Shown here: piece after piece, positions 914 through 25,351 of the stretch
Position numbering within the stretch: position 1 is the stretch's first letter
Layout of the letters: every line of letters starts with the position of its first letter
From: Escherichia phage vB_Eco_mar003J3
DNA length: 64,000 nucleotides
Sequence record: NC_048203.1
Direction: 5' to 3' (one strand)
Translations under genes and position numbers: made by a program
The notes under the pieces: model-generated
What the model was told of the DNA's origin: nothing
Databases searched by the model: none
What the model saw: only the letters and a program-made list of their open reading frames with translations

Positions 914-1618
914 ATGGCTGGTTCTCGTAGAAAGAAACTTATCCATGAAATCCCTGATGAAACCTTTAAAAAGGTCATTGAACATCTGGAGAACGGTGGT
1001 ACTAAGAAAGCAGCATGTGAGATGCTCGGTGTTTCTTCTAACCCAACTATGGAACGAATGATCGAAGAATGGAGAGATCGTCAGGTTCAAGTTGCGGAAA
1101 TGAAAAAGAAGAAGCGTGGAACACTGATTGAGGGTGTTGAGCTTGCAAACGTAATTGAACAGTATCTTTCTGGTGATTCTTTTGAAGAAATTGCTGATCG
1201 TAACTATCGTTCTGTAGCGATGATTAAATCTGTTCTGGAACGTTATGGTGCTCTGCTTCGTTTAAACGATATTGTTGATCCATTGAATCCTCCGTTGATT
1301 CCTGATGATGCAATGGCAGAAGAATTTGAAGTTGGTGAACTTGTTTGGGTTCCTGGCTATCAGTGTATTGGTGAAATCAAGAAAGCAATGACCAACCCAG
1401 TTGGCTGCTACCGTGTTTGGTTGTTATCAGAAGGTAAACAACAGAACGTTCACTATATGCACTACGAATTAGCTTCTGTTAAACATCTGGAAAAGCTGGG
1501 TGTTGATGTTAAGGCTCTGGGCTTTAAGTGGAGTCGTGAAGAAGTTATCACGTTGGTTAATGAAGCTGTTAAAGCTGCCCTGAAACTAGATAAAGAGAAA
1601 GGAAAACGTCGTGAGTAA
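914..1618 (+). CDS. hypothetical early protein, possible HTH DNA-binding
   Basis: 234-aa ORF just downstream of PN25-like promoter; RBS GAGGAG; N-terminal basic region. Confidence 0.6.
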   Translation: MAGSRRKKLIHEIPDETFKKVIEHLENGGTKKAACEMLGVSSNPTMERMIEEWRDRQVQVAEMKKKKRGTLIEGVELANVIEQYLSGDSFEEIADRNYRSVAMIKSVLERYGALLRLNDIVDPLNPPLIPDDAMAEEFEVGELVWVPGYQCIGEIKKAMTNPVGCYRVWLLSEGKQQNVHYMHYELASVKHLEKLGVDVKALGFKWSREEVITLVNEAVKAALKLDKEKGKRRE

Positions 1619-1847
1619 ACTAACTGATCTGTTAAAAGCTGGAGACGTAAAATATCTCCAGCGAACTAGTTGGGAAAATAATAAAGATTACACAGTAATC
1701 CTGAAATTCTTTGTAGATAGCAATACCGTACGCCAGTACGTGTGGATGCCTTTTGATACATCATTATTCCCAAGTGATGAAGTGTGTGAACTAACCCTAG
1801 AAGAAGCCCTGGCCGACGATTGGGAGATCGTTGAACTAGATGTGTAG
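1611..1847 (+). CDS. hypothetical protein
   Basis: 78-aa ORF with GTG start overlapping the upstream stop; AAGGAAA RBS. Confidence 0.4.
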   Translation: MSKLTDLLKAGDVKYLQRTSWENNKDYTVILKFFVDSNTVRQYVWMPFDTSLFPSDEVCELTLEEALADDWEIVELDV

Positions 1848-1867
1848 CAGTTACTGAAAAATTTCAG

Positions 1868-1896
1868 TTGCTTAATCCTGTAATTCTTGATATAAT
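1868..1896 (+). promoter_or_regulatory. T5-type sigma70 promoter
   Basis: TTGCTT-17 bp-TATAAT upstream of ORF 1955. Confidence 0.6.
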
Positions 1897-1954
1897 ATTC
1901 TCATAGTTTGAAAGAACTATTCTGTTTAATTCTTAATTAAGGAAATCGAAAAAT

Positions 1955-2365
1955 ATGACTACTCCAACTCAGTGGACTGATGAACTGTTCGAAAAAATGT
2001 CTTCCGACTACGTTGCTCGTATGGAGCAATTCCCAGAAGATGAGCGTCCGGGCGTTAGCATGGAAATTGTTAGCGAAATTGCTCAGGAAAATGGTGTAAC
2101 TCCGAACGGTTTCCGTATGAAGCTGACCAAAGCAGGTCTGTATATCAAGAAAGCTGCTGGCTCTACTTCTAAATCAAGCGCATCTACTGGAGAAAAAGCT
2201 TCTGGTGGTTCTCGTACTTCCAAAGCTCAGGCTCACTCCGATCTTCGCTCTGCATTCTCTGATGCTGGCTTAGCCCCGGACTTCCTGGACGACGCAATCA
2301 TCGACAAGCTGACCGGTAAAGCAGCTGCTCATCTGGCAGAAGCTATCCGAGCTATCACTAAGTAA
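1955..2365 (+). CDS. hypothetical protein, Ala/Ser-rich
   Basis: 136-aa ORF with RBS; shares short Ala-rich stretches with ORF 5282..6049. Confidence 0.5.
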   Translation: MTTPTQWTDELFEKMSSDYVARMEQFPEDERPGVSMEIVSEIAQENGVTPNGFRMKLTKAGLYIKKAAGSTSKSSASTGEKASGGSRTSKAQAHSDLRSAFSDAGLAPDFLDDAIIDKLTGKAAAHLAEAIRAITK

Positions 2366-2401
2366 TTCTTAGATAAATCCACCAACACAAGGAATACAGT
2401 T

Positions 2402-2698
2402 ATGAATAAAGCTGAAATTATTGCTCAATGCGAAAAATTTGGTGAGTTTTATCTTCATTACGAAAAACTTCGTCAGAAAGGAACCACGTACCTTCAGGGT
2501 ACGATGGAATTTGATCCAGCTCAGGATAAATACCTGGCTGAGCGTATTAAACGTGAGCGCATCCGTAAGCCGAAAGAAGATGAAATCCTCGTTTTCTCTC
2601 GTACTAATGATAGCTTCCGTTTCATTCCTGTTGCGAAAGTTCGCCGTGTGACGAGCCTCCAGTCAGAGTTAGATCGTGCTTCTCCAGTAGGCCGATAA
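2402..2698 (+). CDS. hypothetical protein
   Basis: 98-aa ORF followed by an intrinsic terminator. Confidence 0.5.
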   Translation: MNKAEIIAQCEKFGEFYLHYEKLRQKGTTYLQGTMEFDPAQDKYLAERIKRERIRKPKEDEILVFSRTNDSFRFIPVAKVRRVTSLQSELDRASPVGR

Positions 2699-2709
2699 GA
2701 AACCAATTA

Positions 2710-2729
2710 GCCCCTATATGGGGCTTTTT
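2710..2729 (+). terminator. rho-independent terminator
   Basis: GCCCC-TATAT-GGGGC hairpin followed by TTTTT. Confidence 0.7.
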
Positions 2730-2748
2730 GTGTATTTGGGATATGTAA

Positions 2749-3057
2749 ATGAGCGATCAGGTAAATCAAAACTATGAAGGACACGTTGACGACCAGTCCA
2801 TCATGCTTTGGGAGAAGGAGGGGGAACAAGTAAGACTAACCGTATCTGAATTTCGTGGGAATCTATACATGGGAATTCGTTACTGGCTCCAAGATATTAC
2901 TGGAGAGTGGTTTCCAACGAAATCCGGCTTCTCTTTTCCTTATACCCTAGAAACTACATCACAGCTATTCTACGCTTTTACGCAAATCCTCAGTGAATCA
3001 GAGGTCTTGCATGAAGTACAGAAACGAGCTGAAGAACTCAAAGCCAAGAATGTCTAG
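2749..3057 (+). CDS. hypothetical protein
   Basis: 102-aa ORF; terminator hairpin overlaps its 3' end. Confidence 0.5.
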   Translation: MSDQVNQNYEGHVDDQSIMLWEKEGEQVRLTVSEFRGNLYMGIRYWLQDITGEWFPTKSGFSFPYTLETTSQLFYAFTQILSESEVLHEVQKRAEELKAKNV

Positions 3058-3072
3058 TTCTTGGCTTTTTCT
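3043..3072 (+). terminator. rho-independent terminator
   Basis: GCCAAGAA-loop-TTCTTGGC hairpin followed by T-run. Confidence 0.65.
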
Positions 3073-3084
3073 TTATAAATGTAC

Positions 3085-3113
3085 TTGCTTTCGACTCAGT
3101 TTTCATATATAAT
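3085..3113 (+). promoter_or_regulatory. T5-type sigma70 promoter
   Basis: TTGCTT-17 bp-TATAAT followed by ATTTATATAAATTGATGAGAGG conserved downstream box. Confidence 0.7.
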
Positions 3114-3142
3114 ATTTATATAAATTGATGAGAGGATCAATT

Positions 3143-3343
3143 ATGGCAATGACAATAACACTTCCAAAGATTCAAGCAAAACTTAATTTGCTCTCCATAG
3201 CAAGAATCAATTACCAGGATAGTATCGGCACTCCAAACCAGAAAGCGTACAAAGATGCGTGGTTGAAAGAAGCTGCTGATTTAGCTGGTATGGCTGCGCA
3301 GTATAGTAAAGAACTCAAAATGGAAATCGCAGATGATGAATAA
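3143..3343 (+). CDS. hypothetical small protein
   Basis: ATG at 3143 with GAGAGGA RBS; inside ORF-track frame 3125..3343. Confidence 0.4.
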   Translation: MAMTITLPKIQAKLNLLSIARINYQDSIGTPNQKAYKDAWLKEAADLAGMAAQYSKELKMEIADDE

Positions 3344-4307
3344 TGTAAAAGACTTTATTAAACGTTGTCAAGAAGCGTACTACCAGGGAATGAGTCTTAT
3401 TTCCGATGAAGAATATGATCGTCTGATTAAAAGATTCCCACTAGAGGAAGAAATCGGACCGAAAGGTGATATCCCTCATTTGTATCGTATGTATTCTTTG
3501 CAGAAAGTCTATTACGATCGTGGTGATAAAGCTCCATTCAACCCACTTGGTCAGGTTGAAACTGATAAGTTAGATGGTTGTGCGATTTCTCTATTATATA
3601 TTAATGGTGAGTTTGTTCAAGCGTTAACTCGTGGTAACGGTATTCTAGGAAATGATGTAACGCATAATGTTAAAATGCTGAACATCCCCAAAACTATTTC
3701 CCAAAAAGTACCAACTCAAATCACTGGTGAAGTTCTCATTACTAAAGAAGTAGAGAACAAACGTAACTATGCTTCTGGTGCTATTAACCTGAAAGATAGT
3801 GATGATTTCATGCAACGTATTGGTGAAGGTGGTTTAATCTTCGTTGCATATGGTATCCAGTGTTCAGCGGAAACAGTCGGTATTACAGAAGCCTATTTAA
3901 AAGATATGCTTTGGCTAGAGAATGAGAACTTCTTGACAGTTGTTAATGTTCGTTCCTTTTTTAAATGGATTCCGACGGACGGTAAAGTTGTTCGTATTAA
4001 CGACAACAATAAATTCTTCCGTGAAGGTTGGACTAATAAATTTCCTCGTGGTGCATTTGCTATTAAAGAGGATGAAGAAGGCGAAATTACCACACTTGTT
4101 AAAGTTGAATGGCAAGTAGGGGCTTCTGGTAAAGTAACTCCAGTTGGTTATTTCGAGCCGGTGATTATTGATGATGCCACAATCGTTAAAGCAACTCTTA
4201 ATAACGTTGATTATATTAACGCTCTCGATTTAGAGATCGGTTGCCAGATTCGAGTGATTCGTGCTGGTGGTGTAATCCCTTGTATAGTAGAGCGAGTATA
4301 CGACTAA
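3333..4307 (+). CDS. NAD-dependent DNA ligase, N-terminal (adenylation/OB) subunit
   Basis: KLDG adenylation motif in VETDKLDGCAISL, typical LigA N-terminal region; ends before the Zn-finger/HhH/BRCT part. Confidence 0.8.
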   Translation: MMNNVKDFIKRCQEAYYQGMSLISDEEYDRLIKRFPLEEEIGPKGDIPHLYRMYSLQKVYYDRGDKAPFNPLGQVETDKLDGCAISLLYINGEFVQALTRGNGILGNDVTHNVKMLNIPKTISQKVPTQITGEVLITKEVENKRNYASGAINLKDSDDFMQRIGEGGLIFVAYGIQCSAETVGITEAYLKDMLWLENENFLTVVNVRSFFKWIPTDGKVVRINDNNKFFREGWTNKFPRGAFAIKEDEEGEITTLVKVEWQVGASGKVTPVGYFEPVIIDDATIVKATLNNVDYINALDLEIGCQIRVIRAGGVIPCIVERVYD

Positions 4308-19632: not shown

Positions 19633-19664
19633 CCCCAGTGGATTATCCACTGGGGTTTTCTTTT
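19633..19664. terminator. bidirectional intrinsic terminator between convergent early and late units
   Basis: CCCCAGTGG-ATTA-TCCACTGGGG hairpin with T-run on + strand and A-run before it. Confidence 0.7.
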
Positions 19665-20931
19665 ACTTAGAACTTCTTAGTGCATTAAGTTCTCTCTGCA
19701 TATATTCTAACTGTTCCTTATAGTCCACTATTTGTTTTTGTAGTTCCTGTACAACTGTGATAATATCAGCCATAACAGCCTTATCATTTACGTTTAGAAT
19801 CTCAAATTCTTTTCCATTATCATCTACAGACTGACCCCCACTAAAAACATAAATAGGGTCAATAGCTTCCATCTGCTGTGCTAAATACCCACGCTGGGGA
19901 ACTACATTTCCTTTATATGTGAATTCTACAATCCCTATTTGTTCAATTCGTTCCCACGCACCCGATTTCGGCAATTTAAAATTGTCTTTGATACGAACAT
20001 CAGAACCTTGAATAGCAACTTGCCCTAAAGGAGTATGCATTGTGCTGTCCGCTCGCATAGAATACCAGAGATTTATATTATCAGATCTTGTTAATTGCCA
20101 TGTATATTGTGCGACTCCATCTACAGTATAAATGTAGTTGGCTACCGTACAGTCAGAGTTTTCAAGATGGGATAACTTGTTATGTCTAACACCGTCTAAC
20201 GACTCTTGGCTTTTTAGCTTTACAATTGTAGCAGTGTATGCGTCAGAATTCCCAAAAAGTGCTCGAGCTACAAGGTTTGATTGTGTTTCTAATCCATTCT
20301 GTGGTAGTAAAGTCCCTGGTATATAAAGGTGTCCATTAGAATTAAAACGCATTACTGCTGTATTTGTTCCATGTGCTTCAACCCTTGCTTCGGTAATTCC
20401 ATTTCCAATTGCTGCTTGTGCGTAGAAATCTGCACTAAAGTTATCGGTAGCTCCTACTTTATACTTTGAACTAACTCTGCCACCACTTACTACAGTATTC
20501 ACTGGGGGTAATACTGCATCGGCATTGTTAACACTCCAAGAAGTATTTGCCGCAACAAAACCACCAGATGCACGAATAACCCAAACACCAACAAAACTAC
20601 GTGGCAATATGTTGTTTTTTATTGAATATTTTCCATAGACTCCATCACTGGCCCCAGCGTTAATTGTTAATACTGCGTTGTTTCTTACTCTGCTAAAAGT
20701 ACCATCATTAGGTAAAAATGTATCTTCAACTGCAGAATTATATCCGAAAGCTCCGCTTACAGCTTTAGGTGCTGGTTGCCAAACTTTTCCGCTTGTATCG
20801 TTTGCTGCCGTACCATAAATATTAGGTGCTGCCGCTTCATAGACACGCCCATCTTCGGAAGAATTACCACCATCACCACGCCCAAAAAGACTTAACGTAG
20901 AATTTGGTTGCGCACCGTTCCGGTCAGGCAC
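19663..20931 (-). CDS. distal L-shaped tail-fibre protein (LtfB-like), C-terminal segment with intramolecular chaperone domain
   Basis: C-terminal ...AVMADIITVVQELQ... matches the C-terminus of the neighbouring fibre protein; listed start is GTG and the frame is open upstream to an in-frame TAG at 21013-21015. Confidence 0.8.
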   Translation of the reverse strand: MPDRNGAQPNSTLSLFGRGDGGNSSEDGRVYEAAAPNIYGTAANDTSGKVWQPAPKAVSGAFGYNSAVEDTFLPNDGTFSRVRNNAVLTINAGASDGVYGKYSIKNNILPRSFVGVWVIRASGGFVAANTSWSVNNADAVLPPVNTVVSGGRVSSKYKVGATDNFSADFYAQAAIGNGITEARVEAHGTNTAVMRFNSNGHLYIPGTLLPQNGLETQSNLVARALFGNSDAYTATIVKLKSQESLDGVRHNKLSHLENSDCTVANYIYTVDGVAQYTWQLTRSDNINLWYSMRADSTMHTPLGQVAIQGSDVRIKDNFKLPKSGAWERIEQIGIVEFTYKGNVVPQRGYLAQQMEAIDPIYVFSGGQSVDDNGKEFEILNVNDKAVMADIITVVQELQKQIVDYKEQLEYMQRELNALRSSK

Positions 20932-21012
20932 ACGGAATGTAGTAGATCCGTTACCCGTTGAATACCTACCTCGTTTTTCTGGGTCAGCAAGCCATTCAGC
21001 ATCGGAAATAGG

Positions 21013-21888
21013 CTATAACATTTGAGCGTATGCCCACAATTCAGGCCAGTCTGCGCGATTTAGCAATTGACCATCTGATAAGACTTCATATGGTTGAATA
21101 TACGCACGACTATCACGAAGATGGAAATCACCAACGCCATAGTTCATTACACCATTCATTGTCGGGCCGACAGTGCCTGTATTTACAAGGTTTTGCACCC
21201 AACGTTTCGTCGCTGCATCATAATCGTTAACTGGATCACCAGACAGTGGGGTAGGACCTTGGGGCCTAACAACAGACCATAAAGCTTCCCTATTGGTTAC
21301 TCCTGTACCTCCCTGTTCAACAGATAATGATATCCACTTGTTTTCTACGTCACTATACGCACCCCAAGCACCTGAATTCTGAATAGTTAACCTTGAGCTT
21401 TTATCTCCACTATACACTCGAGTTTCTGTTCCAAATTCCTGGCTAAATCTATCAAGTTCTAGTGCAGTTTTAGCCCCATCTACAGTAGAAGAACCAGTAC
21501 CACCCTGAGCAATAGTAATAGCTTTGGTAAGTGAATTTAGTTCTGTAATATCGTTATTAGCACCCTTACCTGCTTTAGTATCTAGGCCAGTATTAATACT
21601 CTCAATGGATGTGTTAATACCACCCAAGGCAGAATTAATACCACCAATAGACTCGTTAATGCTACTAACAGACTCATTAGTATTGTTAATAGAAGTATCA
21701 ATTCCACTTAGACGAGTGTTTAATTCTTGCTGATCTATATTATACTTAGAGATTTGTAAGTATTTAGAAGTTAATACAACAGCACCAGCCTCTCCATCAA
21801 CAGAGAAAACACCAGCAACAGCAGCATCTCTGTTAACTACAATATATGGCGCCATTGCGCCAGATTTAGGCATTAAATTACGTGACAT
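21013..21888 (-). CDS. distal L-shaped tail-fibre protein (LtfB-like), N-terminal segment ending at an in-frame TAG
   Basis: Repeats GINTSI/GGTG; C-terminus DGQLLNRADWPELWAYAQ is the first half of a collar-like domain whose second half (GNGSTTFRVPD) lies 21 codons downstream in the same frame. Confidence 0.8.
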   Translation of the reverse strand: MSRNLMPKSGAMAPYIVVNRDAAVAGVFSVDGEAGAVVLTSKYLQISKYNIDQQELNTRLSGIDTSINNTNESVSSINESIGGINSALGGINTSIESINTGLDTKAGKGANNDITELNSLTKAITIAQGGTGSSTVDGAKTALELDRFSQEFGTETRVYSGDKSSRLTIQNSGAWGAYSDVENKWISLSVEQGGTGVTNREALWSVVRPQGPTPLSGDPVNDYDAATKRWVQNLVNTGTVGPTMNGVMNYGVGDFHLRDSRAYIQPYEVLSDGQLLNRADWPELWAYAQML

Positions 21889-22286
21889 AAGATTTCCTAA
21901 TAAGATTAGAATTACTCCCTAATCTCTTGTAAACTTTTAGAGTAAAGTGCGAGTCCCTTCGCACAATAGGTTATTATGGAGTATTTTTTATTTTACTCAC
22001 TTCTGTTTCAAGTGTGGACACACAGTTAACTAAAGCTAGAGCTTGATTTACTTCCGTAAGAAGTTTCTTAAGAGTAGTAATCCCTCCCTTTAAGCTATCA
22101 ATTTCTTTTGCTTACTGGTCATTTTCATCCCTTAGCTGAAGAAGAGCTTCATGGTGTAGTACTCTGTCTTTTCATCGAACATGATGTTGTCCGCATATTG
22201 CCGAGTTTGATCGGACTGTATACTCACAACATCCGCGCGGATGTAAAAACCTGCAACAGCATGGTTTAGGAGGAATCCAAATGGTG

Positions 22287-24929
22287 TTACTTTTGTAACA
22301 TCAGATTAACTAGTTCTTTAAGCTCTGCGACTTCTGACTTCAGCGTTTCGATTTCCGTATTCTTTCTCTGTAACTCCTGAACGACGGTTACTACATCCGC
22401 CATGACCGCGCGGTCATTTACGTTCATTATCTCAAATTCATTACCGTCATCACCAAGAGCGGTCCCCCCAAAGTAAGTATAGGTATCGTCGATATCAGCC
22501 ATTTGCTGTGCAAGAAAACCGCGCTGACGGATTTTACTTCCGTTATAGTAAAATTCCATGACACCTATTTTAGCAATCCTTTCCGCTGCGCCATCCCTTG
22601 CAGGAGCAAAGCTATTCTTAATGCGGATATCAGATCCTTGGATGGCGACGCGCCCTTCAGGGGTGTACATCCCGTTATCTGCTCGGATCGAAAAATATTT
22701 AATATCAAGACCTGTTACGTCCATCCTTGTTACAAACTGTTGTTGTGAACCTCCTGGAGATACAAGATAGTGATATATTTTTGTTGTGTTATTTTCGACT
22801 TGGCTCAGATAGTTGACGTTATCCGCGTCCGTCGACGATCTATCCGCTTTTTTTATGACCGCCGGGCCGAAAGCGCCATCACGGCCCGAAAATACGCGCC
22901 CCCGGGCTTCACTCTCACATGACATATTGCCATCAGAGTCTATCGCCAAAATAGCCTGTTTAAGTACGCCACCGATTCTGGATACTGCTGATATGCGAGT
23001 CACCACCACTGACGACCCTTTCGTCGCAGCCACGGACATCGACGCATCGGCGATATTAACGCCGTTTTCGGATAGTCGGCTAGTCAGCCACCCGCCCGCC
23101 GTAGCCCCCGCAGGTAGAACAGTCTCCTTATGTACGACCTGCAACGTGTCCTGGATATTAGGGTTAGTCACCTTTTCCAGAACCCAGCCACGCGTCGCGG
23201 CATCCATCTCGCTAACTGGATCTGCTGCTAATGGCGTGGCACCTACTGGGCGGACGTTAAGCCAAGCAGCGGCGCGGTCTGCGAGATCGCTCAAGTTATT
23301 TGCTTTCTTGAGTACATCTGAAGAAGCTGGAACTTCTAGGGCAGTTCTAGCCTCTTCTACTGTAGAAGCTCCGGTACCACCTTTATTTATCGGGATAATA
23401 TCTTCTACAGAGGCTTCTCCAAGTCCTAAAGCTGATCTTGCAGTCTCAATAGTAGAAGCTCCGGTACCACCTTTATTTATTGGGATAATATCTTCTACAG
23501 AGGCTTCTCCAAGTCCTAAAGCTGATCTTGCAGTCTCAATAGTAGAAGCACCAGTACCTCCTTTAGCTACAGGTAAAATTCCCTCAAAACTATCTGTAGA
23601 AATGGCAATATTAACAGAACCATCTGCAGAAGGTCCAATCCCATTAACCATAGTAATATACGGAATTTGTTCCTTAATAGCACCAGCGTTTTCCTCGCCT
23701 TTTGCAGCAGCACGGAATGCTTGACCCTGCATCATATCAGGTAGACGGAAAGTAGTAGTACCATTACCAGTGGAGAAATAGAGAGTTGCACCAGCTTGCC
23801 ATTGTTCCTCAGTAACCGAAGGGATTAAGCCAGCTTCAATAGCTTCCCAAGTATCTGGGTAGTCTACACGTAGAACCTCACGACCATCAGCAGGAAGAAC
23901 ACCAGGGTACCCAACGCCTGAATCCTTATCATAAGGGAACCAAGTAACTTCACCTAACCACAGAGAAGGATTACCACCAGGAAGAGTAATCTGTATGTTA
24001 CCTACATCATCTGCACGAACGTTATTAATAGAAACTATCTTTTGCTCTGCCTCTACTAACTCTAATTCTGGAGTCTCAGCAGTTCCAGCTACTTTGTACC
24101 ACCCATATTTTGAGTCAGTTTGGTTCCATACTAGGATCTTTTCACCTAGTGCGCGACTACTAACGTCAGTATCTGCTTCTTCTTTGGTCTTGTAGACTTT
24201 GATAAAGCCAGATATATCTTCTTTATCCAGTTTGCTATCTACAATCTGAGTAGCACGATCTGCCTCAGCTTTAGCACGATCTGCCTCAGTAGTAGCATCG
24301 ATAGCTTTATCGCCAGCTTCAGTAGCAGAACCAGCAGCATTAGTTTCAGAAATCTTAGCGTTTAGTTCTGATTGCTTAGCAGCAGCAGCATGCTCACCAG
24401 CAGTTGTTGCAGCAGCATCGGCTCCTTCTTTAGCAGTTTCTGCACCAGTTTGTGCAGTTTCAGCGGCTACTTGAGCTTGTTGAGCAGCAGTTTTAGCTTG
24501 TTCGGCTAGTTCTCTACTTCTTTCAGCATTTTGAGCAGCTAACTGAGCCGCATCTTTGTGTGTGCCGGCTTCTGTAGCAGATGCAGCGGATTCTTCAGCG
24601 CTAGCCTTAGATAATCCAGCTTGTCTCTCAGATTCCGTAGCAGAAGTAGCTGCTTGAGTAGCAGAAGCTTCAGAAGAATCAGCGTAAATAGCAGCTCTAT
24701 TTTCTGAGTCTCTAGCGTTAGTTTCAGATAATTTTGCTGCAATTTCAGAATCTTTTGCAGCAGCAGCTGAAGCTGCGGATGATTCCACAGCCGCAGTCAG
24801 TTCACCCGCAGTAATAGAACTGATAGAGTTACCTAAAACTACTGTATATTTAGGATACTTACTAGCAGTAGTTGTAGTATCATCTATGTTCAGAATCTGC
24901 TGTACAATAATTTTAGTTTTAAGTGCCAT
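22287..24929 (-). CDS. proximal L-shaped tail-fibre protein (pb1/LtfA-like) with C-terminal intramolecular chaperone domain
   Basis: 880 aa; Ala-rich coiled-coil N-terminus, GGTGASTIE repeats, collar-like DGREVLRVDYP...GNGTTTFRLPD, C-terminal AVMADVVTVVQELQ. Confidence 0.85.
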   Translation of the reverse strand: MALKTKIIVQQILNIDDTTTTASKYPKYTVVLGNSISSITAGELTAAVESSAASAAAAKDSEIAAKLSETNARDSENRAAIYADSSEASATQAATSATESERQAGLSKASAEESAASATEAGTHKDAAQLAAQNAERSRELAEQAKTAAQQAQVAAETAQTGAETAKEGADAAATTAGEHAAAAKQSELNAKISETNAAGSATEAGDKAIDATTEADRAKAEADRATQIVDSKLDKEDISGFIKVYKTKEEADTDVSSRALGEKILVWNQTDSKYGWYKVAGTAETPELELVEAEQKIVSINNVRADDVGNIQITLPGGNPSLWLGEVTWFPYDKDSGVGYPGVLPADGREVLRVDYPDTWEAIEAGLIPSVTEEQWQAGATLYFSTGNGTTTFRLPDMMQGQAFRAAAKGEENAGAIKEQIPYITMVNGIGPSADGSVNIAISTDSFEGILPVAKGGTGASTIETARSALGLGEASVEDIIPINKGGTGASTIETARSALGLGEASVEDIIPINKGGTGASTVEEARTALEVPASSDVLKKANNLSDLADRAAAWLNVRPVGATPLAADPVSEMDAATRGWVLEKVTNPNIQDTLQVVHKETVLPAGATAGGWLTSRLSENGVNIADASMSVAATKGSSVVVTRISAVSRIGGVLKQAILAIDSDGNMSCESEARGRVFSGRDGAFGPAVIKKADRSSTDADNVNYLSQVENNTTKIYHYLVSPGGSQQQFVTRMDVTGLDIKYFSIRADNGMYTPEGRVAIQGSDIRIKNSFAPARDGAAERIAKIGVMEFYYNGSKIRQRGFLAQQMADIDDTYTYFGGTALGDDGNEFEIMNVNDRAVMADVVTVVQELQRKNTEIETLKSEVAELKELVNLMLQK
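23361..23540. repeat. two near-identical 90-bp tandem repeats inside the tail-fibre gene
   Basis: Copies 23361-23450 and 23451-23540 differ at one or two positions; diverged third copy flanks them. Confidence 0.9.
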
Positions 24930-25351
24930 TATTGAGTTACTCCATCGCTGATGTATACTTTACCTTCCATAATACGGAAAGAACTGACTTCAGAGCCAAT
25001 TACATCACGAGTCATTAGGATATCATAATAACCAGCAAAACGTTGTCTTGGGTTATACTTATCACGTTCTTTAGATGCTTTTTCACCAATATTAGTAACG
25101 TCTGCAACGGAAAGACTAATTGCAGCAGCACCTTGAGCAGCATCAATAACACGAGTTTTAAAGTTAGCTAGAACCTCGGCGTTCTCATCTAAACTAGACT
25201 TAATAGTTCCTCGGAGTGAATATCCGGTTAAGTTAACAGGAACTTCTGTTGGTGGATATACACTGTCATCAACATCCATAAACTGCATGATAAGACCATA
25301 AGGTACTTTCTCATCAACAACAATATCAATAACTCGGTTTTCTGTACTCAT
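24929..25351 (-). CDS. collar protein (p132-like)
   Basis: 140 aa; position between pb4 and fibre gene; TAATG overlap with fibre gene start. Confidence 0.6.

Follow-up and report, generated by a model that had tools for sequence, protein, structure and literature searches.

Closest described systems and the mar003J3 fibre locus

The L-shaped tail fibre of phage T5 is built from the product of a single gene, pb1 (Ltf), which carries an autocleaving C-terminal intramolecular chaperone. In the related phages DT57C and DT571/2 the locus has the order pb3-pb4-ltfC-ltfA-ltfB-dut-exo, and LtfB, with its Peptidase_S74 domain, is the branch subunit of the fibre (PMC4728585, PMC10713586). Here we describe the ltfB locus of Escherichia phage vB_Eco_mar003J3 (mar003J3), an Epseptimavirus among the T5-like Demerecviridae, as found in a stretch of 64,000 nucleotides of record NC_048203.1 (the window, in which all positions are counted unless stated otherwise). 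The gene appears there as two open reading frames (ORFs) separated by an amber codon. The explanation that we consider by far the best, at a probability of about 90%, is that the two ORFs are a single ltfB, inactivated by a very recent point mutation that turned Ser292 from TCG to TAG, and that the loss was tolerated on the rough Escherichia coli strain MG1655.

Loss of these fibres has been described before in T5-like phages. The lateral fibres are essential only on hosts bearing O-antigen (Ayala et al. 2023, PMC10713586). A nonsense mutant of DT571/2 ltfB grows normally on laboratory and rough strains and has lost its O-antigen host, about 30% of the DT571/2 clones obtained from rough C600 had spontaneously lost infectivity for an O-antigen host, which the authors blame on mutants without lateral tail fibres, and a deletion of ltfA-ltfB was selected in laboratory passage (Golomidova et al. 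2016, PMC4728585); the remark in a preliminary description of the window, made from its sequence, that L-shaped fibres are dispensable in the laboratory agrees with these reports. The fibre-defective lesions of that work include Q45opal in DT571/2 ltfB, S23am in ltfA and the DT530(1) deletion; no fibres were visible in the ltfB opal mutant. Like those mutants, mar003J3 has a lesion in an ltf gene, predicted to be a loss of function, and was grown on a K-12 strain without O-antigen (MG1655), for which the fibres are dispensable. Unlike them, it carries a spontaneous amber mutation in a different codon and belongs to a different genus, Epseptimavirus, and its loss of fibre function is predicted from sequence. 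In the phages vB_EcoS-26175I-V (MK907267-71) the ltf locus likewise holds a disrupted fibre gene deposited as two coding sequences (CDSs), but there it is ltfA that is disrupted, by a +1 insertion in an A7 run, and ltfB is intact, whereas in mar003J3 ltfA is intact and ltfB carries a substitution.

The gene at 19663..21888 occupies the place of ltfB, as the locus runs pb3, pb4, ltfC/p132, ltfA, the gene itself and then dut and exo on the other strand, just as in DT571/2. When read through the stop, its product aligns with DT571/2 LtfB along nearly the whole length (residues 1-731 against 1-764, 50% identity, E=0.0, BLASTP); the first ~330 residues are ~85% identical, while the C-terminal receptor-binding part is divergent, so that the O-antigen specificity of DT571/2 LtfB cannot be carried over. 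The tail-fibre family phrog_6921 (PHROG 6921, 738 positions) matches residues 1-729, and Peptidase_S74 (Pfam PF13884) is recognised at residues 629-678 with E=2.7e-07 and 31.2 bits against a cut-off of 22. Gene position, full-length homology and the Peptidase_S74 domain are thus those of an LtfB, and what the gene lacks is an uninterrupted frame. Judged by these features it is orthologous, over its full length, to the gene for the L-shaped-fibre branch subunit LtfB of DT571/2: ltfB by descent and, as it stands, a nonsense allele. In comparison with DT571/2 it is cut at residue 292 and preceded by a spacer of 398 nt instead of 40 nt. By analogy with T5 pb1, it would belong to the class of O-antigen-binding lateral fibres that are dispensable on K-12 and would share the same type of chaperone domain. 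Unlike T5, with its one fibre gene, mar003J3 has two genes in the branched arrangement, of which the one for the branch subunit is broken and not the one for the tail-attached subunit.

A single frame divided by one amber codon

On the minus strand, positions 19663-21888 translate into 742 codons with a single internal stop and a terminal TAA. The internal stop is the TAG of codon 292 (21013-21015), and it alone lies between ORFs 21013..21888 and 19663..20931, which have a common frame. From this TAG to the GTG (20929-20931) that is listed as the start of the 422-aa ORF there are 27 sense codons, exactly as the preliminary description had read them. The region between TAG and GTG contains no in-frame ATG and no Shine-Dalgarno-like sequence, and in the intact homologues this GTG is an internal Val codon (...TFRVPD...). 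Because it is internal in the homologues and has no Shine-Dalgarno sequence upstream, the GTG is best regarded as an artefact of ORF finding and annotation and not as a credible start. In the record of the phage, LR027389, each of the two pieces is a CDS of its own, named "tail fiber protein", and an exact look-up identified the 291-aa product as VCU43802 / YP_009824366 and the 422-aa product as VCU43801 / YP_009824365. On the reading preferred here, the two CDSs are there because of the nonsense mutation.

Such a junction is rare in the window, where only four stops have on either side an open stretch of at least 100 codons in the same frame. The stop at 21013-21015 is the only TAG among the four, the other three being TAA, and two of these three TAA junctions join abutting ORFs in which the downstream ATG lies 0-1 codon past the stop.

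Codon 292 in related phages

The closest deposited relatives, vB_EcoS-26175II-V (99.3% nucleotide identity; 26175II below) and Citrobacter phage YZU-L1 (96.6%), each have the gene as one CDS of 2226 nt. Together with the orthology to DT571/2 LtfB, this upholds the earlier proposal of one distal L-shaped-fibre gene of ~740 codons that carries an amber codon. At codon 292 serine is encoded in these and other relatives, as TCG in 26175II, in L013 (a third lineage), in L014 and in L017, and as TCA in YZU-L1. The comparison is sharpest for L014 (ENA ERZ28663813, a 113-kb scaffold) and L017 (Logan SRR22878007), which match all 2226 nt of the gene except for one base, TCG against TAG, and differ from the window by only three substitutions in 7-8 kb. 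Since the three substitutions are common to both, L014 and L017 probably represent one phage population and not two independent witnesses.

Serine is also found at the homologous position of more distant proteins, namely DT571/2 LtfB, DT57C LtfA (PDB 8hqz chain d, in its second collar-like segment) and protein P0028. Every examined homologue that spans the site has a sense codon there, serine in all but one, and the stop is therefore not a conserved feature of the kind expected for programmed read-through. The preliminary description had named homologues organised as two genes, with a stop and a start at this site, as the observation that would count against a single gene; these were looked for, and none of the examined homologues is split at codon 292, P0009, P0028 and P0032 continuing through it. 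Among short proteins, those with the same N-terminal module carry another C-terminus or end at other sites. When the 291-aa fragment was the query of the large protein search, only proteins of up to 509 aa were listed; the fragment's own 741-aa cluster and DT571/2 LtfB were missing, and the list is not a census of the family. An exact-pattern scan of viral_contigs with codon 292 kept degenerate gave no match.

The part of the gene downstream of the stop (19663..21012) differs from the relatives mostly by synonymous changes, with ratios of synonymous to nonsynonymous differences of 9:1 and 12:2, and 13 of 15 differences fall at codon position 3; up to a very recent time, then, this part evolved in frame as a coding sequence. 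The change itself is C to A on the coding strand (Ser TCG to TAG), or G to T on the plus strand at window 21014. All of this is what a derived and very young lesion would leave behind, and we regard the TAG as such.

Other ltfB homologues of Epseptimaviruses also look truncated or split, at other positions. In Salmonella phage Kenya-K38 (P0009 and P0047) a 408-aa 'tail collar domain protein' is followed by a 484-aa 'chaperone of endosialidase', and in a 110-kb Logan contig the product of the ltfB homologue (P0010) has 259 aa and ends just before the collar-like segment. These two cases, apparently cut at positions other than codon 292, suggest that ltfB disruptions are common in deposited genomes.

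Reproducibility of the stop codon

The TAG is present in the Logan assemblies of three Illumina libraries (ERR10359653, ERR10359656 and ERR10359658) and two PacBio libraries (ERR10359908 and ERR10359911), all of which are 100% identical to the window. The five libraries belong to PRJEB56639, a mock-virome study of 2022 (Cook et al. 2024), in which the three Illumina libraries were unamplified and the Illumina depth for vB_Eco_mar003J3 was 423-805x. The preliminary description had allowed that reads with a sense codon at 21013-21015 would make this simply an intact gene; no such codon was found in the sequence data of this phage, the five later libraries all having TAG. In addition, an 86-kb contig of ERR2849792, which on indirect grounds is probably the original sequencing run, is identical to the window over the part read and spans the site with the same neighbouring genes. 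An error of sequencing or assembly, with a sense codon as the true state, has next to no probability left. Although a single-base difference from otherwise identical relatives has the look of an error, the same TAG was recovered from five libraries that had been prepared separately about five years after isolation, sequenced on two platforms and assembled with a different pipeline, and the change is a substitution that lies outside any homopolymer.

A pseudo-revertant in the stock, with TAG changed to CAG, was suggested by P0005, a protein of 741 aa that matches the window product and has Gln as residue 292. This was ruled out, as the DNA of P0005 (L023, ERR10359653_516, 1534-3759) is 100% identical to the window including the TAG, and the Gln is there because the gene caller took TAG as a sense codon. 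A partial call of 537 aa (L024 1534-3144) likewise comes from TAG taken as sense. Both are spurious 'recoded' proteins, derived from short Logan contigs, in a large protein collection.

The segment cut by the stop

Residues 266-322 of the read-through product align with residues 342-398 of the paralogue at 22287..24929 (E=1e-07, BLASTP), which bears out the earlier observation that this alignment crosses the stop. As the intact 741-aa homologues align end to end, the match across the stop lies far beyond chance. The nature of the segment is less clear-cut. Against a cut-off of 24 bits, Pfam Collar (PF07484) scores 17.1 in the ltfB product and 18.7 in its paralogue LtfA, covering profile positions 38-54 only, and is found at E<=0.1 in 8 of 22 family members, with a best E of 3.4e-05. 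An AlphaFold2 model of P0028, made from a 22-sequence alignment, had a mean pLDDT of 44.6 and was too poor for a fold search; the segment appears in it as strand-helices-strand, with moderate confidence only. The PDB profile search returned fibre and chaperone structures and no collar-domain entry. The earlier statement that the stop cuts a collar-like domain thus stands in so far as one segment, aligning as a block with LtfA and with DT57C LtfA, is interrupted, whereas the Pfam Collar match itself stays below its threshold (17.1 against 24). Assignment of the segment as a collar-like domain is plausible.

Expected consequences and competing explanations

In a host that does not suppress amber codons, translation would end after 291 residues. 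The resulting fragment would keep the N-terminal module and would be without the receptor-binding region and the C-terminal intramolecular chaperone; since both that region and the chaperone required for folding would be lost, no functional LtfB is expected. The phage was published by Michniewski et al. 2019 as LR027389, after overnight enrichment and three plaque purifications on E. coli MG1655. This strain carries rfb-50, the mutation that in EMG2, a K-12 relative, consists of IS5 inserted into wbbL and leads to a rough lipopolysaccharide without O-antigen. As MG1655 has no O-antigen, lateral fibres would not be needed to reach the outer-membrane receptor, and because the phage was enriched and plaque-purified on this very strain, the loss of LtfB may have been tolerated and even beneficial; on MG1655 it would be neutral or advantageous. 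In the published virion proteomics of mar003J3, seven proteins were detected in all, including MAR003J3_00081, which by gene order is the intact LtfA (22287..24929), and neither of the ltfB fragments. Published spot tests report lysis of K-12 derivatives and of a few Klebsiella isolates and of none of six other E. coli strains (0/6), a host range that is compatible with a phenotype of defective lateral fibres and not diagnostic of it.

Four options had initially been offered for the TAG, and the real nonsense mutation is the one now favoured. The base-call error is effectively ruled out by the five libraries, the amber-suppressing host is at odds with the published host MG1655, and programmed read-through does not fit a stop that is absent from the relatives. 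A genuine two-gene architecture, or programmed read-through yielding a short and a long product, is scarcely credible: other Epseptimaviruses do have short proteins with the shared N-terminal module (P0013 with 256 aa and P0014 with 295 aa), however these differ in their C-terminal domain and do not end at the codon-292 site, P0009, P0028 and P0032 continue through it, neither a start codon nor a ribosome-binding site follows the stop, and all close relatives have a single CDS. The amber codon could instead be leaky or suppressed, some full-length LtfB being made by a suppressor tRNA encoded elsewhere in the phage genome or by abundant near-cognate phage tRNAs, for example Gln(CUG), in which case the gene would be down-tuned and not dead. 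Suppression would be cheap, since TAG terminates only one of the 52 other likely genes in the window. The base after the stop is C, and 26175II encodes tRNAs for Gln(CUG), Gln(UUG), Tyr, Lys(CUU) and Trp as well as one with the anticodon UCA, which points to stop-reading tRNAs in the group. We nevertheless consider this improbable, as the 64-kb window contains no tRNA genes, none of the 31 tRNAs of the closest relative 26175II, searched as a proxy, has a CUA anticodon, the stop is conserved in no relative and hence nothing hints at an evolved mechanism, and no ltfB product was found in virions. MG1655 is not known to carry an amber suppressor. A more elaborate version, in which a CUA suppressor or over-expressed Gln(CUG) makes the amber a leaky switch and gives a bet-hedging mixture of fibre-less virions with a minority of fibre-bearing ones, is more doubtful still.

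A further alternative concerns the origin of the allele, which may have existed as a natural polymorphism in the estuary population before the phage was enriched and plaque-purified on MG1655, instead of arising or becoming fixed in the course of that work. The TAG was already in the stock at the first deposition, and indirect support comes from the 86-kb contig of ERR2849792, which extends across the site and has the same split genes around it. We think a natural origin rather unlikely, since there is no other change in the gene against the contigs with the wild-type allele, which makes the lesion extremely young, natural hosts bearing O-antigen require lateral fibres, and fibre-defective mutants build up fast on rough hosts. 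Several points do weigh against a recent inactivation of ltfB tolerated on MG1655. The mutation may have arisen before isolation as well as during it. The TAG was reproduced at the level of assemblies, and the phage's own tRNA cluster lies outside the 64-kb window, more than 10 kb beyond it. With C as the next base, UAG terminates translation comparatively weakly, and trace read-through may occur. Finally, the loss of LtfB is something that we infer, and its non-detection by proteomics is weak evidence where only seven proteins were detected.

Implications for annotation and host range

No new mechanism is needed for this locus, which very probably presents an ordinary loss-of-function allele of a dispensable fibre gene, and it would add one more case of fibre loss in T5-like phages isolated on rough K-12. 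Its value lies first in curation, since in LR027389 and its RefSeq copy a single broken gene figures as two genes for a "tail fiber protein". The host-range discussion of the source paper assumes a working ltfA/ltfB pair, and the host range and adsorption reported for mar003J3 may reflect a mutant deficient in LtfB; the phage is also in use as a mock-community standard. The same locus illustrates how a lone amber mutation can end up in large databases as a spurious "recoded" protein when the gene caller permits stop codons to be reassigned.

Features of the locus and additional observations

The features discussed above are collected in Table 1. In the 291-codon part upstream of the stop (21016..21888) no Pfam domain was found.

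Table 1. Features of the ltf locus of mar003J3 (window positions)
Feature	Position	Strand	Remarks
ltfB, L-shaped tail fibre branch subunit	19663..21888	-	741 sense codons, interrupted at codon 292
Amber codon TAG, codon 292	21013..21015	-	Base changed: window 21014
Translated part (291 codons), comprising a conserved N-terminal module, shaft repeats and the collar-like segment's first half	21016..21888	-	Expected truncated product in a non-suppressing host
449 codons and TAA: rest of the collar-like segment, divergent receptor-binding region and chaperone domain	19663..21012	-	Predicted to be untranslated
Collar-like segment (plausible), ~aa 266-325	20914..21093	-	Contains the stop; from the LtfA alignment and two segments of PDB 8hqz_d
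GTG listed as start of the 422-aa ORF	20929..20931	-	Internal Val in homologues
C-terminal intramolecular chaperone domain (Peptidase_S74), aa 629-678	19855..20004	-	Downstream of the stop, absent from the truncated product
ltfA, proximal L-shaped-fibre subunit	22287..24929	-	Intact, 880 aa; paralogue of ltfB; first 600 aa 72% identical to DT571/2 LtfA
ltfC / p132, fibre-attachment collar protein	24929..25351	-	140 aa; position and length as in p132/ltfC of 26175II, YZU-L1 and DT571/2

The spacer between ltfA and ltfB (21889-22286) is apparently non-coding, has 38% GC and is conserved in 26175II and YZU-L1. The idea that it is the decayed remnant of a chaperone domain was rejected, as its translations gave no Pfam hit and no resemblance to the DT571/2 locus was found; the spacer could be the scar of a module exchange or could contain a promoter. 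Within ltfA, a tandem duplication at about 23330-23510 encodes GLGEASVEDIIPINKGGTGASTIETARSAL two times, and Logan contigs of several runs break inside it, at window 23421. Further breaks lie at 19645 or 19658, next to a perfect hairpin, AGTGGAT-T-ATCCACT (about 19637-19651), that sits between the convergent ltfB and 88-aa genes and is probably a bidirectional terminator. The loop of this hairpin (19644) holds one of the three single-nucleotide differences from L014 and L017.

The homopolymer in ltfA that is affected in the 26175 phages corresponds to window 22841-22847, around codon 692, where the run is T7 and, on the coding strand, A7. One extra base is found there in 26175II (L001 ~3030-3050) and in the SRR22878007 contig (L017); L014 is without the insertion though it shares the three substitutions with L017. 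The insertion is either the mark of a slippage hotspot that inactivates ltfA or a homopolymer sequencing error.

The UCA-anticodon tRNA of 26175II (MK907268.1 80425-80498; L011 40426-40499) is called 'tRNA-SeC' both by ARAGORN and in the record. As a tRNA of a T5-like phage it is a candidate reader of opal codons, and it has no bearing on the amber codon of ltfB.

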